Of a DNA stretch of 46,028 nt, positions 11,426 through 28,938 are shown one piece after another. Source of the stretch: a virus (Duplodnaviria > Caudoviricetes). Under the pieces are notes generated by a model, which did no database searches, had not been told where the DNA came from, and saw only the letters and a list, made by a program, of their open reading frames with translations. A program made the position numbers and the translations under genes. The stretch covers positions 1-46,028 of IMG/VR virus record IMGVR_UViG_3300031963_000269. One strand, written 5' to 3'. Within the stretch, counting starts at the first letter, position 1. Each line of letters starts with the position of its first letter.

Positions 11426-11842
11426 TTATTTGCGTTTGATGCCACGGGGGTCTTCCACAGTGCCTTCAACGGAGTCATCGTTGATGATGCGAAATTCTTT
11501 GCCGTGGATAACAAGCCGGGTTCCGGCGTGGGGGCGAACAAGAATGAAGTCGCCTTCTTTGCACCAAGGGCCATTGGGAAAGCGCTTTTCGTCCTTGTAA
11601 CAATCGGGGCCAAGCTTGACCACAAACAGCACGGTGGTCAGCGTTTCCTCGTTTTGCACAGTGAGTTCGGCTTTGATGATGCCGCTCTCGTACTCCTTCT
11701 CCTGCTCTGGGATGGCGCAAAGAATGCGGTATCCAGTGGGGGTTGGGAGTTGTTTTGCCTTTTCTTCGTGGGTCAAAGGTGCAACCTCTTTCAATGCACT
11801 TTCTTCTGCCAGCCTCGTGCCGACACTTGAGAAGTCATTCAT
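11426..11842 (-). CDS. groES: GroES-like co-chaperonin
   Basis: LPTPTGYRIL...ESGII...VVKLGPD...KEGDFIL...AGT...FRIINDDSV matches the Cpn10 pattern. Confidence 0.85.
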   Translation of the reverse strand: MNDFSSVGTRLAEESALKEVAPLTHEEKAKQLPTPTGYRILCAIPEQEKEYESGIIKAELTVQNEETLTTVLFVVKLGPDCYKDEKRFPNGPWCKEGDFILVRPHAGTRLVIHGKEFRIINDDSVEGTVEDPRGIKRK

Positions 11843-14535: not shown

Positions 14536-16041
14536 TCAGTAGTAGGCCGCTTTCTTTCGGCGGGGGACAAAGTCTTCTTCATCATCCGTGTTTAAACGGA
14601 GAAAACCGCCCTGCCGGAACCTTAACAGCGCCTGACTGGTTGAGTCAACTAAGTCGTCATGCTCACCATTTGGGAATGAGGCACACTCCTCCATGACCTC
14701 TTCAGCCCAGCGTCTATCTGGACACCAGACAAAGCCGGACGCAAATATGTCAGATATTGCGTTTACACGGGCTATCTTATCATTGCCTTTGCTCGGTGTG
14801 TACTCTTGCAGAGGGATTCCTGTGCGTCTCATCTCGTAGATCAGCGGCGCTCCTGCCGCCTTCTTTTCGATCAGTAGGGTGTCAGGTTCCCACTCGTTGT
14901 ACATCTCAAACGCCTTGGCTTTGAGTTCAGGAAACTCCAGTCGGTCTTTGAATGCGTCAAGCAAGATGATGTTTGGCTGGGCATTGCCCTTTTCATCGGG
15001 GTGTCTGAACACTCCCCATGTGGTGCAAGCTGAATAGTCAGCCCTGTTGTGCTTCTCAAACGCCGTATCCCAGCTTTGAATGGTGTATTCGCACTCAGGC
15101 GGCTCGTCTTTGTCCCAAATCTTCCACATTTCCCGCTTGATGAGCGCACCGCCCTCAGATGTTGGGTTTTGTTGGTACTGGGCTTCCCATTTTGGGACTG
15201 GAATCTCAGATTTGATGGCCTCAAGCTCTTCCTGTGACCAGAATTCAGGCCAAAGTGGCGCTCCAGAGGGCATTAATGCAGGAAATTCGATGACTTCCCA
15301 CTCATCTCCGTCCCTTTTGACCGAGTTTGACACCACCTGACCCGTCAAATCCCGTTTTGACCACCGTGTCATCACGATGATGATGGCTCCCCCGGGCTGT
15401 AAACGCTGGCGAGGGCCTGAGCTATACCATTCATACACCCTGTCATAGACCTTTGGGTCGCCTTGCATGGCTTCCTGCTCGGAATGCGGGTCATCAATGA
15501 TGAGAACGTCAGCGCCTTTTCCGGTTACAGCACCGCCCACACCAATGGCGAAGTAGTCACCGCCCTTGTTTGTATTCCAGCGTCCAGCGGCCTTGCTGTC
15601 TGTGGATAACTTTGTTGGGAAGATGCGTTGGTAGTGGCTTGTGTTTACAAGGTTTCTGACCTTTCGACCAAAGCCCACTGACAATTCTGCGGTGTGGGCT
15701 GTCTGGATGATCTTCTTGTGCGGGTATTTACCTAGAAACCAAGATGGAAACAGAAAAGAGGCAAACTCTGACTTGGTATGACGGGGCGGCATATTGATGA
15801 TGAGCCGCTTGAGCTTGCCGTTGGCAACCCGCTCAAAGGCATCTGCCATGATCTTATGGTGTCGCCCTGCGATGAATGAGGGCCACATATCTTCTACGAA
15901 CGGTATGAAGTGTTCCTTGCACTGCTCACGGCGATCAGCCTCCATAAGGAGTTTGATCTTGGGAATCATTTCATGCTCAGGCGGGAGTGTCTCCAGCATC
16001 TGGAGGTACTGCTCCATTTCCTGAGTGGTCAGAAGACTCAT
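14536..16041 (-). CDS. terL: Terminase large subunit
   Basis: Walker A-like MPPRHTKS, Walker B LIIDDP, MTRW, nuclease QSWDTA...DYSA...HDDLVDS. Confidence 0.95.
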   Translation of the reverse strand: MSLLTTQEMEQYLQMLETLPPEHEMIPKIKLLMEADRREQCKEHFIPFVEDMWPSFIAGRHHKIMADAFERVANGKLKRLIINMPPRHTKSEFASFLFPSWFLGKYPHKKIIQTAHTAELSVGFGRKVRNLVNTSHYQRIFPTKLSTDSKAAGRWNTNKGGDYFAIGVGGAVTGKGADVLIIDDPHSEQEAMQGDPKVYDRVYEWYSSGPRQRLQPGGAIIIVMTRWSKRDLTGQVVSNSVKRDGDEWEVIEFPALMPSGAPLWPEFWSQEELEAIKSEIPVPKWEAQYQQNPTSEGGALIKREMWKIWDKDEPPECEYTIQSWDTAFEKHNRADYSACTTWGVFRHPDEKGNAQPNIILLDAFKDRLEFPELKAKAFEMYNEWEPDTLLIEKKAAGAPLIYEMRRTGIPLQEYTPSKGNDKIARVNAISDIFASGFVWCPDRRWAEEVMEECASFPNGEHDDLVDSTSQALLRFRQGGFLRLNTDDEEDFVPRRKKAAYY

Positions 16042-16268
16042 AGCTTGGTCATCTCATTGACCACTTTGTTGGTCAGCTTTATGGTTCGCATCTTCTTGGG
16101 TTGCATCTCAATGGCCCCCATCTTCTCCAGCTTGCGGATGTAGCGGAATATGTTGGACTTGCTCTTCATGCCAAGACCAATGGCAATCTCTCTGTAGGAG
16201 GGTGTGATCTTGCGTATTTGCTGACAGGCCACGATGAAGTCGTAGACCAATTTGGTTTTCTTTTCCAT
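16038..16268 (-). CDS. LexA-type winged-helix DNA-binding protein (no peptidase domain)
   Basis: VYDFI...TPSYREIAIGLGMKSKSNIFRYIRKLEKMGAI...KMRTI matches the LexA N-terminal domain; start placed at ATG 16268. Confidence 0.8.
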   Translation of the reverse strand: MEKKTKLVYDFIVACQQIRKITPSYREIAIGLGMKSKSNIFRYIRKLEKMGAIEMQPKKMRTIKLTNKVVNEMTKL

Positions 16269-16300
16269 GCGAACCCTTATGCGAACATTTGTACGAACGC

Positions 16301-16329
16301 AATATAGCACGTTTAAACAGGATTAAGAA
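16301..16329 (-). promoter_or_regulatory. Putative extended -10 promoter of the LexA-like/terL operon
   Basis: TTCTTA-17bp-TATATT with TGn extension; GTTTAAAC in the spacer. Confidence 0.5.
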
Positions 16330-16408
16330 CGATCAAGAAACCCGAAGGGTTGCAGTCCTATACACATCCACGCCGTCATGTATAGATTTTGCTGAAATGT
16401 TTACATGA

Positions 16409-16483
16409 TGGTTGCAGGGACTGGAGTCGAACCAGCGATCTTCTGGGTATGAACCAGACGGGATACCACTTCCCCACCCTGCT
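16409..16483 (-). tRNA. tRNA-Met(CAT), initiator-like, CCA encoded
   Basis: 75-nt cloverleaf AGCAGGG-TG-GGGA...TCCC-G-TCTGG-TTCATAC-CCAGA-AGATC-GCTGG-TTCGACT-CCAGT-CCCTGCA-A-CCA; 1:72 mismatch, purine11:pyrimidine24, A73. Confidence 0.92.
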
Positions 16484-16489
16484 ATAGAT

Positions 16490-16637
16490 TGTTGGTGGCA
16501 GGTGCTGATCCCCTGCTTTGCGCCTTAACGAATAGGTCTGTTATTGCGCTTAGACGACCTGACTTTGCGTATCAGCCTACGCATTCACCAACACGGCTGG
16601 AGACTATTACTAATAGTACCTAGTGACAATCCCCATG
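16490..16637 (-). ncRNA. Structured RNA with kissing loops upstream of the tRNA
   Basis: Closing stem UGUUGGUG/CACCAACA, hairpins GCGUA-GGCUGA-UACGC and GCAGG-GGAUCAGCA-CCUGC with complementary loops GCUGA/UCAGC; preceded by a long hairpin at 16599-16634. Confidence 0.65.
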
Positions 16638-16883
16638 CGAATTGGAGCTAGAGCAGGGAGTTCCAGACCGAAGGAGCAACCAACAACCCAAAGTATCACA
16701 ACAACAGGGAGTGGTCTGGTTACTATGCTCTAGCGAACGAAATATACATCAATTGGCTTGCCTGTGTACACCGATCTTGCAGAATTATGTGGAACGATGC
16801 AAACCACACCTCCAGAAGTCTCCACAAGATTATTTGCTTGTTGTTTAAACAATGCGAACGATACTGCCATTTTCAAAATATAT

Positions 16884-17150
16884 AGGGGTGGGGGTTTGTA
16901 ATAGGAAAGTTAAGGGGGTGTGTTTTGTGGGATTGGATGTGTGGATTTGAGTGTAGAGTCAGCCCAGTCAACGCCGTCACAAAAGGGAGGGTCGGGGTAG
17001 GTGGGGTCACGCCTAGCGCACACGCCTCCAGCCGCCTAGCGCACGAGTGGAGAGCCAGCGTTTACACGCTCTGCACACCTCACGCTACGCCACACACACG
17101 CCTCATGCATACGCACATACGCCACGCATACACGCCTTGCACATAGCCGC
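16884..17150. repeat. G-rich then CA-rich low-complexity non-coding tract (candidate packaging/terminus region)
   Basis: Several G3-G5 runs at 16884-17007, CGCCTAGCGCAC direct repeat at 17010 and 17033, then CACACGCC-like repeats; lies between terS and terL. Confidence 0.5.
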
Positions 17151-17180
17151 TATGCACCCTCTCTGACCCGTTCTCTCCCC

Positions 17181-17807
17181 TCAGTGCTTGGCTGATGGCA
17201 GTGTGACGTTGAGCATCGATGCCATCTTCGCCTTGAGTTCACTCTTGAGCTTCTCTACATCTAGATCGTTCTCATCTTTGTCACCAGTCTCATTGAACAT
17301 ACCAATGGACTTGCCCATCATCTCCAATGCTCTGAGCTTGTCACTCACTCGCTCAGTGTTCTTGGCGTGTTCAAAGAGTTCCTGCATGATGAATCGCCTT
17401 GTGGCTAGTTCATCGTTGATCACCATCTCTCGTTTGGCTTGGAAGACAGGCTCAAGTAGTAAGGTAATCCTGCTGTCATTCAGCAATCGGTTCGCATTTG
17501 CCATCACTGTTGCATTGGTGCTATTCGCACAGTCATACACCTTCCGATACGCCTCTGCTGGACTGAGTCCATCTGCAATTGCAGAGGCGAACAATTTCAT
17601 CTTGGTAGTGGTCTTCTTACTCTCAACGATTTCATCTTCCATTGGTTTATGACCGAATGGCTTTCCATCTCCTCTCTGTGTTACCTCTACTTGGTGAACA
17701 GCTTGCCGTATCGCTTCGCTGTACTCTCCCTCGCCATCAATGATTGCATCTGCGAACGGTGCAGTGCTTACACCAGTATCGTTCTCATTCGTTTTGATTT
17801 GTGCCAT
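17181..17807 (-). CDS. terS: Terminase small subunit
   Basis: KLFASAIADGLSPAEAYRKVY...ANRLLNDSRI HTH and DKLRALEMMGKSIGMF motif; AAGGA RBS supports a start at 17807. Confidence 0.82.
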   Translation of the reverse strand: MAQIKTNENDTGVSTAPFADAIIDGEGEYSEAIRQAVHQVEVTQRGDGKPFGHKPMEDEIVESKKTTTKMKLFASAIADGLSPAEAYRKVYDCANSTNATVMANANRLLNDSRITLLLEPVFQAKREMVINDELATRRFIMQELFEHAKNTERVSDKLRALEMMGKSIGMFNETGDKDENDLDVEKLKSELKAKMASMLNVTLPSAKH

Positions 17808-17855
17808 GTTGTGATCCTTTTCGCTTGGTTTAAACACTCTGCATTTGCTCTCAGC

Positions 17856-17884
17856 ATTTTCTCAGCGAGACACACACAACGCAA
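17856..17884 (-). promoter_or_regulatory. Putative terS promoter
   Basis: TTGCGT-17bp-GAAAAT with TGn extension. Confidence 0.4.
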
Positions 17885-17899
17885 CTCGTTCGCATATTG

Positions 17900-17940
17900 C
17901 ACTTCGATGCACTTGGTCACACTTCAATGCACTTCGCCAC
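17900..17940. repeat. Four CACTT motifs in exact 10-bp phase
   Basis: CACTT at 17900, 17910, 17920 and 17930 (imperfect 20-bp tandem duplication). Confidence 0.7.
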
Positions 17941-18255
17941 ACACAACAACAGGGCGACAACCGCAAGTGCGGTGAACACCAGCAAGCCAACAGCAAGACC
18001 GTTTAAACATTGGCTCACTGCAAGCTCATGCTTTGCACCTTGTGTCGCCTCTCTCTTTGCTCACTGCCTATCAAGCACCTGTCCATTCGGCTTCGCCTTG
18101 TCCCTCGACCCCAATCGTTCGCATTGAAAACCGAAGTACTCAAATCACCAATGAAAACAAAGGTATACATTGACCGTTTCCAGCTGTCTCCCAAATCTGT
18201 AACTCGTTGATTCATAAGGCTTTTACAACTTACAGCAAACTTACAAAAATACCTG

Positions 18256-18283
18256 TTGCAAAGGTGTGTAAACGTGCTAGCAT
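18256..18283 (+). promoter_or_regulatory. Early sigma70-type promoter
   Basis: TTGCAA-16bp-TAGCAT with TGn extension and A-rich upstream element; heads the plus-strand early operon. Confidence 0.7.
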
Positions 18284-18659
18284 TCGTTTCGTTGTGGTGC
18301 TTGCATCACACAACAAAGACGGCTTCGATGAGTGACTCGCAAACACTCTAGCCCGAGCAGACAGCCCGTCAGGTACAGGCTCTCAACGTGTCACCCACCT
18401 ACACACACAGGGGACAGACAGAGAGCAACAGCCCTGATGACTACGACAGTCACCTACGTTGACCGTTCACGCCATGCCTACCACCTACACACTCAGGGGG
18501 CAAACAGCGAACGATCTGACCGCTCTGAGAGGAGTGGACGCAAGGCACTGTCCCCATGCACCGTCCTCGTGAATAAGGGCGGCAAGTGGATTCCACTTCA
18601 AGCACATTGTTTCAGTGTGCTTGTGGATGCAATCCGCATCAATCAACAGGAGGCTATCC

Positions 18660-18827
18660 ATGACACCATCACAAGAGCTAAACCACAGCAAAAGCGTTCT
18701 CATTGCATCGCAAAAGGCGTTCGCAAAGCACCCTAGTGCAACCAACTGGCAACGAGTTTTGTTCCACATGGAGCATTACCAAGAACTGTTCAACACGGTA
18801 TCGCTGAAAAAGGAGGCTCACGCATGA
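18660..18827 (+). CDS. Hypothetical early protein (55 aa)
   Basis: CAGGAGG RBS before ATG 18660; ATGA overlap with the next gene. Confidence 0.65.
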   Translation: MTPSQELNHSKSVLIASQKAFAKHPSATNWQRVLFHMEHYQELFNTVSLKKEAHA

Positions 18828-19048
18828 AACAACTTGTCAAGGTGTTTGGTGTGATTGCACCAAACCAAAAATACATCGTGTCTCTGTACCGTGTAGAGAC
18901 ATACAACCACCGCACCACTCCACTTGTCGTTTGGCAAGTGTGGATCAAGTCCAGCGAACACGCCTCTTGCGTTCGTGAATGCACAACCAAGCGTGAGGCT
19001 ATCGAATGGGCGTTCATCTACAACCAACCACAGAAAGAGATCGCATGA
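18824..19048 (+). CDS. Hypothetical early protein
   Basis: AGGAGG RBS, coupled overlaps at both ends. Confidence 0.7.
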   Translation: MKQLVKVFGVIAPNQKYIVSLYRVETYNHRTTPLVVWQVWIKSSEHASCVRECTTKREAIEWAFIYNQPQKEIA

Positions 19049-19182
19049 AACAGGACATTCAACTTCTCGCAGAGACGCTTGAAGAGGCGTACAAGGCTCT
19101 TCAGCAGGGCGACAAAGACATTGCGTTGGCTTGCATTGCCTACGCACAGACCATCATCAACGGCACAAACAGGGAGGTTTAA
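19045..19182 (+). CDS. Hypothetical early protein (45 aa)
   Basis: Read manually: MKQDIQLLAETLEEAYKALQQG...NREV; ATGA overlap; fills the operon gap. Confidence 0.6.
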   Translation: MKQDIQLLAETLEEAYKALQQGDKDIALACIAYAQTIINGTNREV

Positions 19183-19184
19183 AC

Positions 19185-19466
19185 ATGGAGATCAAAGTTT
19201 TTTTCGAGGTGCATAACGGCTACACCGAACAAGTTGCAGTGTTCGCATCTGAGGCGGTGTATGCCGCTTGCCTCCCTGCGCTTGAGGCGTTAGCCAATGA
19301 GCTGGGCTTTGACTCAGTGACAGAGTCGGTGACCTACGAACAGCAGAGCCTGTCTCATGCCTATGCAGAGCGGGGTCTTGAGGATCGCACCAAGCCCATT
19401 CGACAACTGCCTGAGTTTCACGGCTGGAGTGACGCTCAGATCGCCAACTACTTTGAATCACTTTAA
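19185..19466 (+). CDS. Hypothetical early protein
   Basis: GGAGG RBS, MEIKVFFEVHNG start. Confidence 0.7.
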   Translation: MEIKVFFEVHNGYTEQVAVFASEAVYAACLPALEALANELGFDSVTESVTYEQQSLSHAYAERGLEDRTKPIRQLPEFHGWSDAQIANYFESL

Positions 19467-19476
19467 GGGGAACAAC

Positions 19477-19671
19477 ATGGAAAAGAAATCAATCGAATCA
19501 TTCAAGCTGTCCATCACTTGGAGCGATGGCAAAACAGAGGGCTTGGCAAATTGCCTACCCGAATATTTGGAGGCTGAGTTGCGTATTTATTTTCAAGAGC
19601 TTGAGGACTTGCGTGAAGAGCATGACGCTGATTTGCGTGACGAGCCTTATTCATTCGCACAGGACAACTGA
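19477..19671 (+). CDS. Acidic hypothetical early protein
   Basis: AAGGGG RBS, MEKKSIESF start; its stop codon lies inside the ribozyme core. Confidence 0.65.
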   Translation: MEKKSIESFKLSITWSDGKTEGLANCLPEYLEAELRIYFQELEDLREEHDADLRDEPYSFAQDN

Positions 19672-19713
19672 TGAGGCTTGATTAGCCGAAACCTGCGAGA
19701 GCAGGTCTTGTTC
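19662..19713 (+). ncRNA. Type I hammerhead ribozyme
   Basis: Stem I GGACAA/UUGUUC, core CUGAUGA, stem II GGCU/AGCC, GAAA, stem III CCUGC-GAGA-GCAGG, cleavage triplet GUC (cut after 19707). Confidence 0.92.
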
Positions 19714-19733
19714 AACTTTATGGAGGCTTATCC

Positions 19734-19886
19734 ATGTACTACGTTCTCATGTCTCTCGCTTCAGCGGCATCGCTGTTCGCAGGTTTCTCTCTCAGTGACG
19801 GTGTGCCACTGTGGAATTTCGTTATCGCCATTGGCGGTTTTTATCTTGGTCACGTTGTGACTGAGGCTCTCAACAAGGAGGTTTAA
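19734..19886 (+). CDS. Small membrane protein (50 aa)
   Basis: Read manually: MYYVLMSLASAASLFAGFSLSDGVPLWNFVIAIGGFYLGHVVTEALNKEV; GGAGG RBS. Confidence 0.65.
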   Translation: MYYVLMSLASAASLFAGFSLSDGVPLWNFVIAIGGFYLGHVVTEALNKEV

Positions 19887-19888
19887 AC

Positions 19889-20107
19889 ATGGTCATCGAT
19901 TCAAACAGCCCATTGGCAATTCGTGGCATCAAGCGCAGTGTTCCAGCCATTGCAGTGCCACTCGCAGAGATGGTTGATTACTGGGGTTCGCCCTGCGATG
20001 AATACGAGAAAGGTTGCTCTGCCTGTACAGCGTGGAGCTTGTTCAACAAGTCAGGCAAGTTTGCTACTGACGCTGAGGTCAATTCAAAAATGAAAGAGGA
20101 GGTTTAA
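19889..20107 (+). CDS. Hypothetical protein with Cys cluster
   Basis: AAGGAGG RBS; YWGSPCDEYEKGCSACTAW. Confidence 0.7.
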   Translation: MVIDSNSPLAIRGIKRSVPAIAVPLAEMVDYWGSPCDEYEKGCSACTAWSLFNKSGKFATDAEVNSKMKEEV

Positions 20108-20109
20108 AT

Positions 20110-20700
20110 ATGACTGCTACCAACCGTGAAGAGTGGCTTGCCCACGCTGTAGAAGAGCTTCGCTCTATCTTCAATTCAAACGGCTTCCCACTGCCCGACA
20201 AGATCAGGGTCACCTGTGGATTCCCATCCAGCAAGGCTCGTTCGCAACACCGTGCCATTGGTGAGCATTGGTCACCCAAGGCATCGTCTGATGGTCACCA
20301 TGAAATCTGCATCAGCCCTGTGGTTGATGACGCTGTTGAGGCGTTCGCAATCCTCTGCCATGAGTTGTCCCATGCGGCAACAGATGGTGACGGTCACCGT
20401 GGACGTTTCCCTGCTTGCGTTCGTGCCTTGTGGCTTGAGGGCAAGGTCACTGCAACAGAGGCTGGCGACACGTTCAGAGACAACTTCGCTTCACTGATCC
20501 AGTCATTGGGCGACTACCCACACGCCAAGCTGAACATCTCTGCTGTCCGCAAGGTGCAGTCCACTCGCATGATGTTGGCTGTCTGCCCAACGTGCGGCTA
20601 CAAGATTCGACTCACCGCCAAGTGGTCATCAATCGATCTGCCTTGGTGTTCGCATGGTCACGGCACGATCACAAGTGCAAATCAATTTCAAATCGTTTAA
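20110..20700 (+). CDS. SprT-like zinc metalloprotease
   Basis: HELSH zincin motif, downstream GH..F, C-terminal CPTCGYKIR...PWC Zn ribbon. Confidence 0.8.
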   Translation: MTATNREEWLAHAVEELRSIFNSNGFPLPDKIRVTCGFPSSKARSQHRAIGEHWSPKASSDGHHEICISPVVDDAVEAFAILCHELSHAATDGDGHRGRFPACVRALWLEGKVTATEAGDTFRDNFASLIQSLGDYPHAKLNISAVRKVQSTRMMLAVCPTCGYKIRLTAKWSSIDLPWCSHGHGTITSANQFQIV

Positions 20701-20718
20701 ATCAGGAGGCTTCCTATC

Positions 20719-22227
20719 ATGTCAAAAATTTCTCAAGCTCTTTCGCTCATCTCCACAGGCAAACTCAATGCCGCCCTCGTACAAACAGGCTACGGCTCAG
20801 AGGTCAGTGCCGACAAGGTGCGTGTGGTCACCATCCTCACAGACATTGTCAACAAGGGCGGCATCACCGTGGATGAGATTCGCAACCTCGTACCACTGTC
20901 AACAGCAGTGATCAACGCCAAGCAAGCACCGTCAGCAAACACTGGTGCAATCAATGATTCGATTGGCTTGGTGAATGACGCACTCACCGAGGTTCGCAAT
21001 TCGCAGACGATAGTCTCGACAACCTACAGCCTCGCATCCAAAACGCTGGACGAGGTGCGTGACTTGCGTAGCAAGATCGTCACGCAAGCCGACAAGATTG
21101 AGCGTGACTTGGTCAAGCGCATTGACACTGAGGTTGGCAAGATCACAGGCGTGGACTACAGCAAGATTGACAACGCCATCCGCTCAGAGGTCGGCAACTT
21201 GTTCTCCTCGTTTAAACAGTCTGTCACGCCTGAGCAATTGCAGACCGTTGCCAACAGCGTGGCGGTGTTCTCAACACACAAAGCCTCTGAGATTTTCCCT
21301 GCGCCCCTGTTCTACCAACAGGACGGTGAGACGGTTAATTTTGAAGACATGGAAGTGCTGGTCTGGAATGATCCAGAGGCATTGGCGGTGCTTGATGACT
21401 ACGTCTTCAACCCTGCCAACTTGCACCAAGCACTTTGTGCGCTGAGTGAGTCGATCCCCGACAACGTCTGGCTTGCAGGTGAACGGTCAACAGGTAAGAC
21501 TGCATTCACTGAGCAGATCAGCGCACGGCTCAAGCGCAAGCTGTTCCGCATCAACTTCGATGACGGCATGGAGCGGTCGGAATTCATTGGAGCCAACATT
21601 CTCAAGAATGGCGATGTCGAATGGAAAGCAGGGATCATTGCTCAAGCTATCCAGCACACTGGTTCGCTCATTCTGTTGGACGAGATCGGCTTTGCTCGTC
21701 CTGCACAACTCGCATCACTCCATGCACTTTGCGAACGCTCTGCCAATCGTGCGATTGTGATTGCAGAGACAGGCACTCGCATCCCTGTTGCATCACACGT
21801 TGCATTCTTCTGCGCAGACAACAGCAACGGTCATGGCGATGCGTCTGGCAACTTCGCTGGTGTTCGTGATCAGAACACTGCATTCATTGATCGGTTCAGC
21901 TACACGCTGGAATTCAACTACCTGCCACACGCTGATGAAGTCACACTCATTCACAAGCGCACTGGTTTGAATGCTGATGCCGCCAATGTTCTTGTGACCT
22001 TTGCGAATGTGGCTCGAGAGAAAGCAAGGGCTGGTGTTCTCACTCAGCCTCCATCTCTGCGCCAGATGCTTGCATGGGCAAGAGCAGTGACCAAGGGCGT
22101 ACCCACGGTGACAGCGTTCCGCTCTGCCATCGTCAACAAGTTTCCTGCCGATTGCGAACCTGAGTTGGTAGGCATCTTCACCGCCACGGTCAACACCGTG
22201 GAATTCAAATCCTTTTTGAACAAGTAA
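20719..22227 (+). CDS. MoxR/CobS-like AAA+ ATPase
   Basis: Walker A GERSTGKT, Walker B ILLDE, AFIDRF arginine finger, SLRQMLAW sensor II; N-terminal coiled coil. Confidence 0.88.
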   Translation: MSKISQALSLISTGKLNAALVQTGYGSEVSADKVRVVTILTDIVNKGGITVDEIRNLVPLSTAVINAKQAPSANTGAINDSIGLVNDALTEVRNSQTIVSTTYSLASKTLDEVRDLRSKIVTQADKIERDLVKRIDTEVGKITGVDYSKIDNAIRSEVGNLFSSFKQSVTPEQLQTVANSVAVFSTHKASEIFPAPLFYQQDGETVNFEDMEVLVWNDPEALAVLDDYVFNPANLHQALCALSESIPDNVWLAGERSTGKTAFTEQISARLKRKLFRINFDDGMERSEFIGANILKNGDVEWKAGIIAQAIQHTGSLILLDEIGFARPAQLASLHALCERSANRAIVIAETGTRIPVASHVAFFCADNSNGHGDASGNFAGVRDQNTAFIDRFSYTLEFNYLPHADEVTLIHKRTGLNADAANVLVTFANVAREKARAGVLTQPPSLRQMLAWARAVTKGVPTVTAFRSAIVNKFPADCEPELVGIFTATVNTVEFKSFLNK

Positions 22228-22237
22228 GGGGGGCATC

Positions 22238-23353
22238 ATGTACTTAGGCACACAAGTGAAACGAGGCGTTGCAACAACGCTTGAGCGAGTCTTCCAAGCA
22301 AGCGGTCAGAGCATCGACAAGCTTGAGATTCTTTGGTCTGGCAAAACAGCAGGGATCATCTTCAAACGCTCCAGTGCAAAGACATTGGCTAGTGTGCAGT
22401 TGATCTTCCCATCGATTGATGACATGGCAAACATCTCACGCAAGGTGTTCAACAACACGCTTGGCTATGCCTTGCATGAGCTGGGTCATGCATGGTTCAC
22501 CAACAACGCACCGTGGGACGAGGCTCGTACCCAGCACGGCTCTTATGTAAGCTCATTGATCAACGGTCTTGAAGACCCACGCATTGAGCAGTGTGTCATC
22601 GACTCAGGCTACGCACCGAATGCCAAGGCGTTGTTTGAAGAGCTAACCAACTCAGTGTTGGACGATAGCGGCTATGTCAAGCCTGATGACTTGAAGAATG
22701 TGCCGTTCATGTTGGCGATTGAGGGAAGGCGTTTAAACGGCTACCCAATCAAACACGCCACGGTGTTGGGTGCGTCCCCTTGGTCTGCTGATATTGAGTG
22801 GGCTTTGAAGTCTGCACAAAAAGCAAAGAACACGCAGACCATCGCTGACATTGCCATCGAATTGTTCAAGCGTTTACAGCAAGCGCATGAGAAACAAAAG
22901 CAACAGCCCAAGCAACCGCCACAAGGTGATGGCGGTCAGCAGGGTGATGACGGTCAGCAAGGTGACCAAGCTGGTGACCAGCAGGGTGATCAGCAGGGTG
23001 ATCAGCAGGGTGATCAGCAGGGTGATCAGGCTGGTGACCAAGGCGGTCAGCAAGGCGATAAAGCTGACGGTGAGGGCAAAGGGTCAGGCGGCAAAGATGA
23101 TGGTGCTGGTGACGGTTCTGGTGAGCCTGAGCAGGGGTCTGGCGATGGTCAGCAGGGCGAGTCGCAAGGTGAGCCAAACAATCAGGGCGGTAGTGGCTAC
23201 AGCAATGACCCATTCAATGACCTCAAGCGCAAGCGTCCTGAGTTTGACAAATTCATTCAGAATGGATTGCGTCCACACACTGCACTTGCAGACAAGATCA
23301 AGGTTCGCCCTGCAATCCTCAAGCCTAAGATCAACGAAATACTTTTCTTCTAA
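22238..23353 (+). CDS. CobT N-terminal-like metallopeptidase with a low-complexity Gln/Gly/Asp tract
   Basis: HELGH...NGLEDPRIE motif; follows the AAA+ gene. Confidence 0.75.
   Translation: MYLGTQVKRGVATTLERVFQASGQSIDKLEILWSGKTAGIIFKRSSAKTLASVQLIFPSIDDMANISRKVFNNTLGYALHELGHAWFTNNAPWDEARTQHGSYVSSLINGLEDPRIEQCVIDSGYAPNAKALFEELTNSVLDDSGYVKPDDLKNVPFMLAIEGRRLNGYPIKHATVLGASPWSADIEWALKSAQKAKNTQTIADIAIELFKRLQQAHEKQKQQPKQPPQGDGGQQGDDGQQGDQAGDQQGDQQGDQQGDQQGDQAGDQGGQQGDKADGEGKGSGGKDDGAGDGSGEPEQGSGDGQQGESQGEPNNQGGSGYSNDPFNDLKRKRPEFDKFIQNGLRPHTALADKIKVRPAILKPKINEILFF
22979..23026 (+). repeat. Tandem repeat (CAGCAGGGTGAT)x4 encoding QQGD
   Basis: Four perfect 12-bp units with degenerate flanking units at about 22930-23060. 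Confidence 0.9.
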
Positions 23354-23362
23354 GGATCAATC

Positions 23363-24166
23363 ATGCGTATCGACAAAGACACCGCAGACAACATTTACAA
23401 ACACAACTACACACTCACGCCTTCAGGTATGGGTGCAACACGAGCCAACTTGCTACGCATCTTGCGCTCCAACGATCTGGTGAGTTGGTCAAGCCATGAA
23501 GAGTCGGGGCGTGTTGATCGCAAAGCGTTTACACGCTATGCGTGTGGTGATGCCAACATCTTCAGCAAGCGTGAGGTGCGTGAGGCAGAGCGGTCAGCGG
23601 TCAGCATAATGATCGACTGCTCTGGCTCAATGAACTACCACGGTGAGATCGCTGTTGCTTGTCAGGTTGCAATTCAGCTATGCAAGATTCTGGACAAAGC
23701 CAACTCTGAGTTTAGTGTCACGGGTTTCTATGGCAACGACACAACTGTCGAGAGCGATAAGGCTGGAGCATCAAGAGAGATACTGGTGAGAGCCGAACGC
23801 CCTGTGTTCATCCCATTCAAAAAATGGGGCGAGTCACTGGGCAAGGCATCATCCAAGCTTGGCGCAATATCTCAGTGCGCTCAAGGTTCAACGCCAGACT
23901 ATTCATCGATTGCTCTGGCGATTGAAGACTTGGCGACACGCAAAGAACAGCGCAAGGTTTTGTTCTTGCTCACTGATGCGAATGGATACCATGCTGAACA
24001 CATGAAGTACTTGCAACAGCTTGCCGACAAACAACGCATCACACTGATTGCGATTGGCATTGGCAACACCAAGGTTGATCAGTGTTTCACCCACGCTGAG
24101 AATGTTCGCAACATCCAAGACTTGACCAGCGCATCGCTGAACAAGGTTTTGAAAGTCTTGAAGTAA
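23363..24166 (+). CDS. VWA-domain protein (CobT C-terminal-like)
   Basis: ESGRVD, MIDAS DCSGS, GSTP and LLTD motifs. Confidence 0.85.
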   Translation: MRIDKDTADNIYKHNYTLTPSGMGATRANLLRILRSNDLVSWSSHEESGRVDRKAFTRYACGDANIFSKREVREAERSAVSIMIDCSGSMNYHGEIAVACQVAIQLCKILDKANSEFSVTGFYGNDTTVESDKAGASREILVRAERPVFIPFKKWGESLGKASSKLGAISQCAQGSTPDYSSIALAIEDLATRKEQRKVLFLLTDANGYHAEHMKYLQQLADKQRITLIAIGIGNTKVDQCFTHAENVRNIQDLTSASLNKVLKVLK

Positions 24167-24207
24167 ACCAAGGGGGCTTGTCCCCCATCTTTTAAAAGGA
24201 AAGCATC

Positions 24208-24453
24208 ATGGAAGAACTCACAGCAGAAGAAATTGAAAAGCAATTCGACTCTTACATGGAACTCAGAGACAAAGTCTTGGATGTTCTTGAGGGTCACAAC
24301 ATAAGGATCATCTTGCCCATGCTCACAGCCCTGCTTGCGGAGACTGCATTTGAAACAGGCGTAGAACTTAAAGAAGTTTTAAGACTTGTTGTTGCCGCTA
24401 TCACCGTGAAGTACGCAAGCGAGATGCCCAATGAAGATGAACCCATTCACTAA
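24208..24453 (+). CDS. Hypothetical protein
   Basis: AGGA RBS; resembles the next ORF (YMELRDKV..ILPML vs YVDLRDEM..VMPIL). Confidence 0.7.
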   Translation: MEELTAEEIEKQFDSYMELRDKVLDVLEGHNIRIILPMLTALLAETAFETGVELKEVLRLVVAAITVKYASEMPNEDEPIH

Positions 24454-24462
24454 GGAGACAAC

Positions 24463-24747
24463 ATGAAAGAAAGAGTAGGAATCATTTATAAATTGGACGA
24501 TGACCAAGTCATTGACAGGGAAGAGTATGTCGATCTTAGAGATGAGATGATTGCCGCTGTTGATGGGAAAGACAGTGGGATGGTCATGCCAATACTCATA
24601 TCCTTGGTAGCCGAAATGGCAATGCTCAACAACCTAAGCCTTGAAGAAATTGTTGGTGCTTCTTTTCAAATAATGAAAAGCGAATATGAGCTTCATAGTG
24701 AACTCATAAAAGAATTTATTGAAGAAAACAAAAGGGGGTTAATGTGA
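24463..24747 (+). CDS. Hypothetical protein, probable paralog of the preceding gene
   Basis: AAGGAG RBS; shared motif with 24208..24453. Confidence 0.7.
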   Translation: MKERVGIIYKLDDDQVIDREEYVDLRDEMIAAVDGKDSGMVMPILISLVAEMAMLNNLSLEEIVGASFQIMKSEYELHSELIKEFIEENKRGLM

Positions 24748-24965
24748 TTTGGAACTATAGGGTCATTGACCTAAGAGAAGAGAATGGCGGTGAGCCTTGC
24801 TACAAAATCTGCGAGGTGTACTACAACGATGACGAGAAGCCTGATGGGTATGCGGATGCCACGGTGATGGGCGACAACCTTGCAGAGGTTCGACAAGAAC
24901 TCAAGCGCATGACAGCGGCAACCAATAAACCAGTGCTGACCCTCAAGGGCGGCAAACTTTTCTGA
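24744..24965 (+). CDS. Conserved hypothetical phage protein
   Basis: WNYRVI...ICEVYYND...A..KPVL motif; GTGA overlap. Confidence 0.72.
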   Translation: MIWNYRVIDLREENGGEPCYKICEVYYNDDEKPDGYADATVMGDNLAEVRQELKRMTAATNKPVLTLKGGKLF

Positions 24966-24970
24966 CCAGT

Positions 24971-25008
24971 TCCCCCCTTAGCTTCACGGCTTCGGGGGGA
25001 TTTTTTTT
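24971..25008 (+). terminator. Intrinsic terminator of the early operon
   Basis: TCCCCCC...GGGGGGA stem followed by T8. Confidence 0.85.
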
Positions 25009-25059
25009 GCCCTGTAAATCCTGACTTTCCCCGCTCAGGTGCTAGAGCGTTTAAACAGC

Positions 25060-26781
25060 CTAGAAGTCATCAGCAACTTTGTACGTTCCAGTCACCTTTT
25101 CATAATTCAATTGGGTTTCGCCCTGTGTTCCAACCCATCGATAGCGACATTTCCAAATTGCAATTTCAACGTCATTGGTCGGGGTTCGGTGTACGGTCAT
25201 GCCGCAATCAGCCTTTGCCCACCACGCCATTGAGCCACTGATTGCCATGCCATCAGGACGAGGTAAATCCATGCCTGAGCGTGTTATTTTGGCTGGGTGA
25301 GCCACAAACCACACATGAACTCCATAAGCCTTTGCGAACGCTTGTATGCGTGTCAGCATGGATGAAATGAACTCTGTCTCTGCCATGCCTGATTTGTTTT
25401 CGATGTAGTTGTAGGGATCGACTACCAGCCCCCTGATGCCCATGCGAACAACTGCAATCCTTGCCCTGTCCAGTATCGAATCAATTGATGCTGGCTCAAC
25501 GCCCTCTGAATCTAAAAATAAAAAATGTTGTTGAACCCAATCGAACGCATCCTTGCGGTCGTCCTCCGTCATCCTATTTGTACCCTCAAAGAATCGCTTC
25601 TCTTTGTAGATTTCCATCAGTCGTGAAATGTGAATCTCTGGAGCGTTCTCAAACGAACAAAGGGCGAACTTCCAATCATGTGATCGTCCAAGGTTGACCA
25701 TCAACTGGTCAACGAAATTTGATTTGCCGCTGGATGGGTAGCCTGTCACGATGGTGAGTTGACCTTCAGCCACGGTGTAAATCTGATCCACGTTTGAATA
25801 CCCTGTCGATGTTCCTCGTCCAGTGCCTTTGCTCCATAGATCGTTTAAACGGTCTTCAAACTTTGTGGCGGATGACAAACCAGCAACTGGGTAAGGCTCT
25901 GCCTTGTCAATTATTTCTTTGACCTTTGTCGCCCCCTCTGCGAGGAATGCCTCGTTTAAATCTTTGAAGTCTGACTTGGCGATGCGGCACTTGTCTTTGC
26001 CTATGCGCCTTGCCAATTCTTCTGCAAGAGCTTGACCAGCGGTGTCGGTGTCAACTGCAATCACAACGTAGGGTAGCTTTTCAATTGTCTCAAATGCATC
26101 CCAAATGAAACTGAATTTTTTATCTTCGCTTGGCGCAACCTTGCCATCGTTTACTTTGATGGGAGCGCCAGAGGGAACACTCACCACGTTCTCAATGCCG
26201 CATTCGATCAGCGTCAATGCATCTATTTCGCCCTCTACGATGATCATGGGTTTTGTTGGATCAACCTTGTCAATTGCAAAGAAGACATGAGTGCCGCCTG
26301 TGTCTTGCGTGAAGTCCTTCGATTCAATGCTTCGATACTTGGCGTTGATGTACTGACCATTCTTGAAATAAGGAAAGCCGATTGCATCGGTTTGCTTTTG
26401 CAGTCGATTGAAATATTTATTTGCCGCAAACAACTTCATGTCAAGGGCGGTCTGTTCTGATATGCCTCGTGTTTTCAAAAATGCAAAGTGCTGTGGCTCA
26501 AGTTGTGTTTGTTGAAAGGCTCTGATTGGAATCACGTTTTGCTCCTGAAGCTTGGGCGGTTGAATGTAGTTGGATGGGAAAAAAACAAAGCCGCCAATGT
26601 GGCAGTGATGGCAGTGGTAAGTCCATCCACGCTCTTTGCGGTGAATGGATAAATCTTGGTCGTTTGTTTTTGAACGCTCACCTGAGCATTCGGGACAAGT
26701 GGCACGTTTTGATACGTCCACATTGAGTGACGCAACGAGTTGGTCGATAGCACTCGTTGCAGATGATCCTGCAAATTTCAT
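25060..26781 (-). CDS. Primase-helicase (T7 gp4/Twinkle-like: Zn finger, TOPRIM, DnaB-type helicase)
   Basis: CPEC...CHHC, IVEGEIDAL, DTDTAG, KDLNE, GYPSSGKS, VVDPYN, VAHP, ISGS motifs. Confidence 0.93.
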   Translation of the reverse strand: MKFAGSSATSAIDQLVASLNVDVSKRATCPECSGERSKTNDQDLSIHRKERGWTYHCHHCHIGGFVFFPSNYIQPPKLQEQNVIPIRAFQQTQLEPQHFAFLKTRGISEQTALDMKLFAANKYFNRLQKQTDAIGFPYFKNGQYINAKYRSIESKDFTQDTGGTHVFFAIDKVDPTKPMIIVEGEIDALTLIECGIENVVSVPSGAPIKVNDGKVAPSEDKKFSFIWDAFETIEKLPYVVIAVDTDTAGQALAEELARRIGKDKCRIAKSDFKDLNEAFLAEGATKVKEIIDKAEPYPVAGLSSATKFEDRLNDLWSKGTGRGTSTGYSNVDQIYTVAEGQLTIVTGYPSSGKSNFVDQLMVNLGRSHDWKFALCSFENAPEIHISRLMEIYKEKRFFEGTNRMTEDDRKDAFDWVQQHFLFLDSEGVEPASIDSILDRARIAVVRMGIRGLVVDPYNYIENKSGMAETEFISSMLTRIQAFAKAYGVHVWFVAHPAKITRSGMDLPRPDGMAISGSMAWWAKADCGMTVHRTPTNDVEIAIWKCRYRWVGTQGETQLNYEKVTGTYKVADDF

Positions 26782-26796
26782 AAGCCTCCTGATGAT

Positions 26797-27072
26797 TTAC
26801 TTTTTCGGTCTGTTCACTTTGACAGTGTGGTCACTGTTGCGAGTGAATGAACGATTCTTTGATGGTGATTTCAATTTCAAGTTTGATGGTGCGTTTGTTC
26901 CTCCTTTGGATAGCGGCACGACATGGTCGATGTCTTTGCCCTTGCGGTCAATACCCTTCTTGTCCATGTCATATCTTGCACGTTCTCTTGCATTGCGTTT
27001 GGGTTGTTCGCCACGCTCAACTTGTTGCTCATATTCTTTTTTGTATGGTCTTGCTTTGTTCACATATGGCAT
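26797..27072 (-). CDS. HNH endonuclease-like protein
   Basis: DIDHVVPLSKGGTN..SNL...KNRS. Confidence 0.8.
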   Translation of the reverse strand: MPYVNKARPYKKEYEQQVERGEQPKRNARERARYDMDKKGIDRKGKDIDHVVPLSKGGTNAPSNLKLKSPSKNRSFTRNSDHTVKVNRPKK

Positions 27073-27095
27073 GGAATTTCCTGTAAATATTTACT

Positions 27096-27300
27096 CTTTG
27101 CGCTCCCTTTTGGGGGAGCGCAAGGCGCACCTAGCCTATCCTAGATGTGCCTTCACGCATGATGCGCCCCGACAGACTTCTCGTGCAAGGGACTCTGTCT
27201 TCGCCATCCCCTCTGGTGTCTAATGCACTTCCAACAGTACCAGCAATACACCTCTTGACCCTGTTGTCAATTTCTCCCAACGATCAAAAGAGGATTGCAG
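27096..27300 (-). ncRNA. Candidate structured RNA upstream of HNH/primase-helicase
   Basis: Consecutive stems CCUCUU/AAGAGG, CUGGU/ACCAG, GACAGA/UCUGUC, AAGGC..CUAG/CUAG..GCCUU and UUGCGCUCCC/GGGAGCGCAA in a gap with no credible gene. Confidence 0.45.
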
Positions 27301-27410
27301 TTTAAGCCATGAAAGAGGGGCGACACAATGGGGTAAACGCAAAATATTTTTGCGATGCGTTTAAACTTGCTTCATGCAATGCCACGGCGCTTCACCCGGG
27401 ATCATCAGCC

Positions 27411-27442
27411 AAAAAAAAGGGAGATGCGTTTAAACATCTCCC
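27411..27442 (-). terminator. Intrinsic terminator whose hairpin contains GTTTAAAC
   Basis: GGGAGATG-TTTAAACG-CATCTCCC followed by T8. Confidence 0.8.
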
Positions 27443-27519
27443 AAAGAATTGCCGCAAGAAAGCAGAAAACGAACGGCAACTGCCAATGCATTATTCCAAA
27501 AATATTTTGCGAACGAGTG

Positions 27520-27547
27520 TTGACACGCTTGATGGGGGAGCTACAAT
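27520..27547 (+). promoter_or_regulatory. Strong sigma70-type promoter driving a small RNA
   Basis: TTGACA-16bp-TACAAT; terminator about 55 bp downstream. Confidence 0.75.
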
Positions 27548-27553
27548 TCATGC

Positions 27554-27629
27554 ACCTAGACATGATTAAGCCTCCTGTATAGCAGATCGAAAGATCGGTA
27601 GAAGCCACCCTTGCGGTGGCTTTTATTTT
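27554..27629 (+). ncRNA. Candidate about 75-nt sRNA with anti-Shine-Dalgarno seed UAAGCCUCCUG
   Basis: Own promoter, GAUC-GAAA-GAUC hairpin, terminator AAGCCACC-CTTGC-GGTGGCTTTT; seed complementary to several phage RBSs. Confidence 0.65.
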
Positions 27630-27991
27630 GCCTGTATGGGGCTGACCTCAATCTCGCAACGAGAGTTCTCTTTGTCTACACCCATCCAATAGATGTGCTT
27701 CTCTTTCACTTGCCTGTCGTTGAGATACGCAACGTCCTGTAGCAAGTCCAAGATCAACGACTCATCCAAGTCAGGTCGCCTTGATGCATACCAAATGCGA
27801 ATGGTTACCGCAACATCCTCGCTGATGAACTTCAACAAGGGCGGCACAACAGCTTGCTGTTTAAACGACTTGGCATAGCCCAATGCTTTTGCGGATTTGA
27901 TGAACATTGACTTGCCATTGACCATCACCGCTCTGCGACTGTTTGCCTTGCTTGCGGGTTCGCCATAAATTTTCAACAAAAGTGTTTGCAT
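27623..27991 (-). CDS. rusA: RusA-like Holliday junction resolvase
   Basis: GEPASKAN, RPDLD...ILDLLQ...YLNDRQV, C-terminal EIEV. Confidence 0.8.
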   Translation of the reverse strand: MQTLLLKIYGEPASKANSRRAVMVNGKSMFIKSAKALGYAKSFKQQAVVPPLLKFISEDVAVTIRIWYASRRPDLDESLILDLLQDVAYLNDRQVKEKHIYWMGVDKENSRCEIEVSPIQAK

Positions 27992-28014
27992 GGTTTATTT
28001 TCTCGTGTTAGCAT
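27986..28014 (+). promoter_or_regulatory. Sigma70-type promoter of the recombination operon
   Basis: TTGCAT-17bp-TAGCAT with TGn extension. Confidence 0.7.
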
Positions 28015-28047
28015 AAGCGTTCGCATTTTATCAACCAAGGAGGCTCA

Positions 28048-28938
28048 ATGAAAATTACGAACAAGTTTGGTTTGCCAGCGCCACTATACGCTCTTGCGAA
28101 CAAACAGTACTACAGCAAAGGTGACGCTGATTACTCAGTCACCGAAATCATTTCACCGCCTCGCATTCAGCGGCTACGCAAGAAGCACGATCACGAAATG
28201 GAAACGGATGTCACCGATCTGTGGTGGTCAATCGTTGGCTCTGCCCTGCACGTTGTGATGGAGCGTTCTGTTGTTGACAACTATAAGAACGAAGAGCGTC
28301 TCACCACCGAGATCAATGGCGTTCGCTTGTCGGGTGCAATTGATGTTCAGCAGATTGAGAGTGACGGCATCACGATCATGGACTACAAGTTCACTTCAGC
28401 ATGGGCGCTGATGAACGAGAAGCCTGAGTGGTCAATGCAACAAAACATTTATGGTCGCCTTGTTCAAAAGGTTAAGGGCGAGAACGTCAAGGGCTTGAAG
28501 ATCATTGCTGTCGTTCGTGATTGGTCGAGGCGTGAGGCAGAGAGAAAGCCAACCTACCCACAAGCCCCACTCCAGATGGTGGACATTCCTTTGTGGGAAG
28601 AAAGCTTCACAGATCAATTCATTGAGAGGCGCATTGAGTTGCACCGTGACTCCAAGGTCAGTGCCGATTGGGACGATGAGTTACCCCCATGCACAGACGA
28701 AGACCGCTGGATGCGTGACCCCAAATTTGCAGTCAAGAAAGAAGGTCGCAAGACTGCCGTTCGTGTTTTTGACACGATGACCGAAGCAAGCGAGTTGTTG
28801 GCAACACTGCCAGCAAAAGACAAAGGGTTCATAGAAATCCGCAAAGCCGAACCTGTGCGCTGTACGCAAGATTATTGCGGTGTCAGCAAGTGGTGTTCAC
28901 AGTATCAATCCTATTTAAAGGAGCAGGAAAATGAGTGA
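28048..28938 (+). CDS. PD-(D/E)XK exonuclease (RecB/Cas4-like)
   Basis: GSALH, E, LSGAID, IMDYKFTS, QQNIY, C-terminal RCTQDYCGVSKWC. Confidence 0.85.
   Translation: MKITNKFGLPAPLYALANKQYYSKGDADYSVTEIISPPRIQRLRKKHDHEMETDVTDLWWSIVGSALHVVMERSVVDNYKNEERLTTEINGVRLSGAIDVQQIESDGITIMDYKFTSAWALMNEKPEWSMQQNIYGRLVQKVKGENVKGLKIIAVVRDWSRREAERKPTYPQAPLQMVDIPLWEESFTDQFIERRIELHRDSKVSADWDDELPPCTDEDRWMRDPKFAVKKEGRKTAVRVFDTMTEASELLATLPAKDKGFIEIRKAEPVRCTQDYCGVSKWCSQYQSYLKEQENE

Follow-up and report, generated by a model that had tools for sequence, protein, structure and literature searches.

The phage genome analysed here, from a family of uncultured aquatic phages, probably encodes a trans-acting small RNA (sRNA) that pairs with an extended Shine-Dalgarno (SD) tag in the ribosome binding sites (RBSs) of the phage's own early and replication genes and lowers their translation. 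The element has the make-up of a conserved non-coding transcription unit, with a predicted loop-exposed seed and co-evolution of seed and tags. A sequence-only reading of this DNA had proposed a trans-acting, multi-target RNA that reads an extended RBS code, and strong support for it comes from conservation, from structure and from the covariation of seeds with RBSs. It is the relatives, and not the single genome, that decide the case for such a putative code.

Genome setting of the sRNA locus

The window (the whole stretch of 46,028 nucleotides analysed here) is a linear virus record that is 74% complete. Its minus strand carries the late genes (terminase, portal, capsid, tail and a 3088-aa protein), and an early operon (18.6-25 kb) lies on the plus strand together with a recombination block (28-36.8 kb). 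Between the early operon and the recombination block lie, on the minus strand, the resolvase gene rusA (27623-27991), which converges on the sRNA and is the positional marker of its family, an HNH gene, and a primase-helicase gene (25060-26781). The plus strand encodes a MoxR/CbbQ-type AAA+ protein (20719-22227) and a PD-(D/E)XK exonuclease (28048-28938), and a LexA-like HTH gene lies at 16038-16268. The window also holds one tRNA gene (16412-16483, minus strand) and a GroES-like gene inside the late cluster (11426-11842).

The pointer to a host is weak: a search of 185,579 species genomes turned up no prophage junction and, as sole relatives, two small contigs binned as betaproteobacterial. 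Lifestyle appears mixed, with a tyrosine recombinase in two of four near-complete relatives (G005 and G007) and none in G002, G004 or the 46,028-nt window. G002 and G004 are complete or near-complete and carry the RNA, and neither an integrase nor a resolvase was found in them.

A predicted three-hairpin RNA with its own promoter and terminator

The promoter, the seed and the hairpin with its U-tract all lie where they had been claimed from the sequence. The promoter is of sigma-70 type (TTGACA-16-TACAAT, 27520-27547, plus strand), with the -35 box at 27520-27525, the -10 box at 27542-27547, a 16-nt spacer and 11 of 12 matching hexamer positions. It ranks best of six promoter-like sites in the 17-32 kb region, and a score of at least 9/12 was obtained in 61 of 67 distinct relatives when the best pair was picked per sequence. 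Because this promoter resembles a host sigma-70 promoter, the sRNA is likely to be made early.

Just upstream of the -35 box, a GTTCGCA motif (27508-27514, minus strand) is a candidate regulator site, and GAACG/CGTTC stands close to the -35 box in 38 of the 67 distinct relatives. The degenerate form GTTCGYA, itself a candidate regulator site, occurs 32 times in the window against 9.8 expected and is clustered in the early and control regions (15895-28101). Three copies (16268-16298) immediately precede the LexA-like HTH gene, and single copies lie before the sRNA -35 box (27508) and in the divergent promoter between rusA and the exonuclease gene (28019).

Folding and a covariance model predict an sRNA of about 76 nt (27553-27628, plus strand) made of three hairpins in a row; the model scored it at 54.5 bits, with the window itself in the training set. 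Hairpin 1 (27556-27582) has a weak stem with internal loops and an apical loop UUAAGCC (27566-27572). The seed, AAGCCUCC, occupies this loop and its closing stem; its string GACATGAT-TAAGCCTCCTG was located at 27559-27577 and, from covariation with RBSs, is read as an anti-start part, GACAUGAU, joined to an extended anti-SD, UAAGCCUCCUG. Hairpin 2 (27585-27596) is GAUC-GAAA-GAUC in the window, and most relatives have GACC/GGUC instead. The intrinsic terminator, a hairpin with a U-tract (27597-27629), overlaps the stop codon of rusA on the opposite strand. Its stem (27602-27622) and TTATTTT tail were found by folding (z -3.5) and were missed by a simple terminator scanner, and the terminator is conserved among relatives with compensatory changes.

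At the level of sequence, an individual promoter, an intrinsic terminator and a length within 50-300 nt, the general marks of a trans-encoded sRNA, are all present. No conserved ORF was found on either strand, and the plus-strand unit has no conserved start in an alignment of 36 copies (A1). Among eight public RNA runs, available as contigs only, an assembled contig of a relative spans 27428-27663 in run X4, such contigs giving no ends, strand or level. A relative's contig also covers 27390-27633 in run X5, which is probably DNA, and X1-X3 and X6-X8 gave no cover of the element.

A conserved family beside rusA

Relatives were gathered by scans with the exonuclease and RusA proteins, which gave 138 loci in 82 groups of distinct rusA; loci with less than 55% rusA identity or shorter than 1 kb, and duplicates with identical rusA, were dropped before counting. 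The element lies directly behind rusA in 72 of the 82 groups, one locus is cut at the RNA (L452), and nine groups are without it. A held-out metagenome scan added 54 new rusA sequences, 43 of them with a seed.

In alignment A1 the -35 and -10 hexamers are kept and their spacer varies; the 5′ leader is variable, the seed is kept, and a GACC/GGUC hairpin and the terminator follow. Folded singly, the copies form three hairpins, the first of which holds the seed in its loop, and the mean unpaired probability was 0.74 for the seed versus 0.33 for the 3′ part (62 sequences). The stem of hairpin 1 is kept with differing sequences, and in 41 of 51 cases a copy folded better with its own flanks than after a swap. 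In a sequence-only alignment of 32 copies both sides change in 12 of 18 pairs, and the covariation score of the 32-copy alignment was 0.252, versus 0.144 for shuffles and at most 0.184 for slid structures. Fixed-column counts show hairpin 1 paired only 48-53%, because its register shifts, and shifting stem registers also explain why RNAalifold recovered the terminator as the only structure in the promoter-containing alignment. Some family members have a second C-rich loop in hairpin 2.

Covariance model R1 returned 69 hits (E<1e-4) in 91 sources, beside rusA, of which 32 are training sequences; it gave no hit in the nine seedless groups or in the distant marine-type loci L055 and L075. A second rusA scan, seeded with L033, brought in mostly unrelated phages and a clear model hit only in L533. 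Searches with nhmmer retained only copies adjoining rusA, and pattern scans returned mostly noise (ordinary RBSs or chance). No Rfam family covers the element, the best matches (E 0.1-1.3) being terminator look-alikes, and blastn of 27000-28100 against 50,697 GenBank phages gave no match. No description of the RNA was found in the literature, and it may be listed among unannotated candidate structures (Fremin 2023, PMC10690425; Weinberg 2017, PMC5737381). It appears to be a real phage sRNA family, as yet undescribed, for which natural compensatory changes give unusually strong evidence of multi-target pairing to a phage-private RBS tag.

Predicted target sites in the window

Six sites complementary to the seed lie at gene starts, each at the place first given for it. 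The RBS and start of the primase-helicase gene carry 11 nt (26781-26791, minus strand). The remaining five are on the plus strand. At the AAA+ gene, two stretches (20703-20712 plus 20716-20723, 10+8 nt) span the RBS and AUG (20703-20723). Three early ORFs carry sites at their RBSs: the first early ORF, 18660-18827 (18646-18655, 10 nt), ORF 18824-19048 (18811-18818, 8 nt) and ORF 19734-19886 (19722-19730, 9 nt). A weaker site is found at the RBS of the exonuclease gene (28038-28045, 8 nt). The site lengths originally reported stand, except that the 18646 site, before the ATG at 18660, is one nucleotide longer.

With the cost of opening structure included, the strongest predicted binding is at the AAA+ site (-25 kcal/mol), and the primase-helicase and six other early starts lie between -14 and -18.5 kcal/mol. 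Three of these six (19889, 20110 and 22238), predicted by wobble pairing, had gone unnoticed. At seven late starts the predicted binding was 0 to -13 kcal/mol, and at the exonuclease it is weak (-7.9 kcal/mol). The observation that no late structural gene uses such an RBS held among 27 late-strand gene starts, none of which has a perfect seed match longer than 7 nt.

The caveat that generic SD complementarity contributes to these matches proved justified. When the flanks of the CCTCC core were shuffled and the core was kept, 4.5% of 2000 shuffles equalled the observed number of gene-start matches of at least 8 nt (five matches counted, the start at 18660 having been missed by the start picker). 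Since flank shuffles reach the observed count this often, the excess over generic anti-SD pairing in the window genome by itself is weak evidence (p~0.04).

Seeds and RBS tags change together across relatives

Classified by their mirror, the seeds fall into five classes: AGGCTT (35 groups), AGGCTA (15), AGGCTC (12), GGGCTT (9) and AGGCCA (1). The last mirror bases fall outside what we take to be the pairing register of the 16S rRNA tail, so ribosome binding cannot explain them. Start codons were chosen from alignment position, not from the RBS.

Covariation in related phages had been proposed as a check on the code, and it was found. The primase-helicase RBS carries the 6-mer of its own seed class in 49 of 53 groups, with another class in one and no tag in three, of which two are probable start mis-picks (L483 and L516) that were kept as misses. 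For the AAA+ gene the figure is 34 of 35. The exonuclease RBS has the own-class 6-mer in 41 of 71 groups (other class 21, no tag 9) and the SprT-like gene in 6 of 34. Control genes do not follow the seed (rusA 0/72, HNH 1/62, Erf 1/53, vWA 0/39, terS 0/13). The held-out set gave own-class tags at 27 of 29 primase-helicase, 6 of 7 AAA+ and 24 of 39 exonuclease starts. Duplex energies likewise prefer own over other-class seeds at the primase-helicase (52/53), the AAA+ gene (35/35) and the exonuclease (62/71), and in controls the preference was 23/72, 32/62 and 13/39. The six targets originally named are thus unequal: the primase-helicase and AAA+ genes follow the seed nearly without exception, and as a target the exonuclease is weak.

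A FastTree phylogeny of RusA, exonuclease and primase (79 rows, gappy; L452, L071 and exonuclease-less rows left out) contains at least 10 changes of seed class. Parsimony on the 34 AAA+-tagged rows gave 7 seed, 7 RBS and 7 joint changes, and on the 49 primase rows 7 seed, 8 RBS and 8 joint changes. When RBS evolution independent of the seed was simulated on the tree under a simple equal-rate model (80,000 runs each), the maximum number of seed-RBS matches was 36 of 49 for the primase and 27 of 34 for the AAA+ gene, versus 48 of 49 and 34 of 34 observed. Independent-pair sign tests had at most 4 pairs per class, too few for significance, and none ran in the opposite direction for the primase or AAA+ genes. 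A seed change from CCUCC to CCCCC is accompanied by an RBS change from GGAGG to GGGG, L659 included. Some departures from the code fit G-U wobble: in G-seed phages, U is the last base of four of seven tagged exonuclease RBSs, and the L506 primase has GGGGC with a CCUCC seed. A conserved accessible seed, distant start regions and compensatory change, which mark the sRNA class, are accordingly found together.

Beyond the named targets, 61 of 88 distinct contexts of other ATG starts in the loci have the own-class tag, a count uncorrected for kinship. In six near-complete relatives the own-class tags at plausible starts mark early or replication genes; the exceptions are one tagged gene in the late region of G005 and, in G004, a short ORF contained in a late gene. 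In G002 two late genes carry a wobble-compatible tag. The primase RBS is itself marginal, with a spacing of 3-5 nt in 34 of 50 and a non-AUG start in 23 of 53, which fits a gene that is kept low.

Loci with absent or divergent seeds were also informative. In all nine seedless groups GGCT is absent at the primase-helicase, AAA+ and exonuclease starts; L482 had looked like an exception, but it carries the RNA 1 kb further off with a matching seed. L033 has a different seed in the same place, which fits six starts of this phage (with 11 nt at the exonuclease and SprT-like genes) and 0-1 starts in each of seven other phages. A like fit to own starts is seen on the other strand in L455 and L444. 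Candidate divergent seeds of L046 and L509 match none of their own starts, and a candidate in L038 was rejected as merely the RBS of a small gene. L669, L671 and L673 have a tagged exonuclease RBS and no seed beside rusA (L669 is cut short). Behind rusA in these three loci, and in the same place in L488 and L676, stand different short anti-SD units (CUCCU plus terminator), and the lineages that bear them are without the GCCUCC seed.

Neighbouring elements

The orphan Rfam motif Betaproteobacteria-1 RNA (RF02932) is phage-borne here (27167-27291, minus strand, 72.5 bits), upstream of the HNH-primase genes, and it also occurs in three of six relatives scanned. It is a separate element, 260 nt from the sRNA in the same intergenic block, without overlap or similarity. 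Two more strong hairpins fold at 27098-27154.

Back-to-back with the sRNA lies a divergent small unit (27490-27411, minus strand) with a GCAGTTG motif, a pyrimidine-rich stretch and, at 27442-27419, a strong terminator. Many relatives have a separate CUCC/CCUC stretch in this unit, which in L455 and L444 matches their own early RBSs; in the L033 clade the plus-strand unit is likewise headed by GCAGTTG. This unit could be a second sRNA or the rusA 3′ UTR. Read-through of rusA (27623-27411, minus strand) would produce a perfect antisense of the sRNA ending at the same terminator, possibly a natural sponge.

The palindrome GTTTAAAC occurs 37 times in the window against 1.7 expected under a third-order Markov model (for example at 2444, 16311, 19177, 27359, 27428 and 45229), about every 1.2 kb in genes and spacers alike. 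Six near-complete relatives have 25-47 copies, and 20-kb loci of distant relatives have 0-1. It is possibly a site for methylation, packaging or protein binding.

A proposed delayed brake and its alternatives

We propose that host sigma-70 polymerase would transcribe the sRNA from early in infection. The loop of hairpin 1 would nucleate on the GGC-U-N of the tag, the weak stem would open, and pairing would spread over the SD and, for the AAA+ gene, the AUG, blocking 30S binding and so reducing translation. Hfq may load the sRNA through the terminator tail; hfq is present in both candidate betaproteobacterial host bins, whose host status is unproven. The build-up of the sRNA would place a delayed brake on replication initiation and on early operon heads. 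Most late and most host genes would be spared because they are without the SD extension, and host targets should be few given the rarity of the extended tag: GGAGGCT-N1-7-ATG occurs at 34 and 27 sites in the two bins (3.1 and 2.1 Mb, host status unproven). Of the earlier claim of a translational repressor, the part concerning the site stands, since it covers the SD and start codon; repression is what we infer from that site, and the early-to-late or dormancy switch put forward with it is a conjecture.

The main alternative to the delayed brake, to which we give a small though appreciable probability, is immunity against relatives of the same code. Here the RNA would be an immunity or incompatibility factor with which a resident phage (carrier, lysogenic or first-arriving) silences the replication genes of same-tag relatives, the seed classes being immunity groups by analogy with c4 of P1/P7. 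The repeated switching among the five classes on the 79-row tree (at least 10 changes) speaks for a pressure towards distinct codes, no target is tighter than the primase-helicase, and c4 confers P1/P7 heteroimmunity (PMC12197685, in the part cited). However, close relatives are usually of one class, and drift with compensation could equally create the classes. Lifestyle does not decide between brake and immunity: two near-complete relatives have a tyrosine recombinase, whereas G002 and G004 combine the RNA with no integrase or resolvase, and the species-genome search yielded no prophage junction and only the two small contigs.

We consider it very improbable that a phage DNA- or RNA-binding protein recognises both the tag and its mirror copy, with the copy behind the promoter serving as an operator and no RNA-RNA pairing taking place. 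Positions +7 to +25 are normal for an operator, the LexA-like HTH gene is at hand, and a shift in protein specificity would likewise make the sites co-vary. Against this, the mirror copy has, relative to transcription, an antisense orientation to the tags in every case, and it sits in a hairpin loop with compensatory stems. Two further hairpins, also conserved, and a U-tract come next, and no gene follows them. The wobble-compatible departures at the exonuclease and at the L506 primase also speak for pairing.

Marginally less probable again is an RNA that mimics the anti-SD in general and has host mRNAs as its chief targets, the phage matches being incidental. CCUCC can pair with any strong SD, and both candidate host bins encode Hfq; but the phage-variable bases follow the phage RBSs and no fixed host target, and the extended tag is as infrequent in the bins as noted above. 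It is scarcely credible, finally, that a small minus-strand gene behind rusA, whether or not a cis-antisense RNA goes with it, accounts for the seed as no more than its RBS and ATG in reverse complement: the minus strand does read CAGGAGGCTTAATCATG and then a 53-aa ORF, most of 119 scan hits show the identical 17-mer as an ordinary RBS, and L483-L485 have a tagged minus-strand gene nearby, but the ORF was rejected as not conserved, being 38% identical in a relative whose flanking proteins are 86-88% identical, not found beyond it and, among 67 distinct relatives, without a start codon in 27 and shorter than 20 aa in 20.

Discussion

According to the cited part of PMC12197685, known phage sRNAs mostly target host genes, or one overlapping or antirepressor message. 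The present RNA appears to control a whole group of genes of its own phage by way of a tag embedded in their RBSs, which would offer phages a protein-free means to time replication or exclude relatives. Compensatory changes are the usual mutagenesis proof of an sRNA-target pair, and here the genomes record natural ones over at least seven switches among lineages. The seed classes would supply ready-made orthogonal seed/RBS pairs.

Several known RNAs invite comparison. Fremin 2023 describes six candidate RNAs upstream of RusA (PMC10690425, in part); the present RNA lies downstream and on the opposite strand. P22 sar and lambda OOP are also short phage RNAs with their own promoters, opposite a neighbouring transcript, but they are cis-antisense to a single overlapping target (PMC12197685, in part); here no conserved overlapping target ORF was found on the opposite strand, as a cis-antisense RNA (sar, OOP or type I antitoxin) would have.

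The c4 RNA of P1/P7 is alike in that a phage RNA blocks translation near an RBS through a loop-presented sequence, and in that sequence variants yield specificity groups, comparable to the five seed classes, which are known from genomes only. It differs in controlling the antirepressor (ant) message (all PMC12197685, in part), whereas the present RNA is predicted to have many separate early and replication targets, through the SD extension, and has its own promoter and terminator. The Rfam C4 model did not match the present RNA, and none of the 73 ORFs scanned is an antirepressor. RsaE/RoxS of Staphylococcus and Bacillus likewise have a C-rich unpaired region that pairs with several SDs and inhibits initiation, but they are chromosomal RNAs of Firmicutes with host targets (PMC4409812, in part). 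An unpaired C-rich region complementary to the SDs of several mRNAs is predicted here too; in contrast, the present RNA is phage-encoded and directed at same-phage targets whose shared tag changes with the seed, and neither a match to the RsaE/RoxS Rfam model nor a Firmicutes chromosome was found. The present RNA works like c4 or RsaE but belongs to neither.

A further parallel is offered by the SAS of cluster K mycobacteriophages, an extended SD on non-structural genes whose function is stated to be unknown (PMC3203893, PMC11373665, in the parts cited), and still was in 2024 (PMC11373665, in part). K1 genomes have one SAS copy in opposite orientation (PMC3203893, PMC11373665, PMC12699233, in part). 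Both systems extend the SD with bases that 16S rRNA cannot read and do so at non-structural genes (PMC3203893, PMC11373665, in part); SAS differs in its unrelated sequence and host and gave no match to model R1, and its mirror copy is part of a longer leader, whereas the present RNA is a stand-alone unit. In Adephagia we found 16 forward SAS sites and one mirror copy, which lies in the loop of a strong hairpin (z -4.7) in the 92-93 gap (L599 33661-33712, record 58660-58711), where late transcription is reported to start (PMC11373665, in part). The region is common to 182 phage records, and the loop is kept in LilPharaoh and Validus and absent in Pixie and Yuna (three of five aligned phages keep it). 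We regard this parallel as a lead, not proof, and it gives a concrete hypothesis for the SAS motifs. More speculatively, and at odds that we would put well short of even, the present phages might run an RNA-only lock-and-key regulon in which a private RBS barcode on replication and early genes is read by one sRNA key and barcodes diversify into immunity or incompatibility groups. If so, a resident phage would shut off competitors of the same code, and the same logic would cover SAS, whose single mirror copy is presented by a hairpin loop where the late transcript begins.
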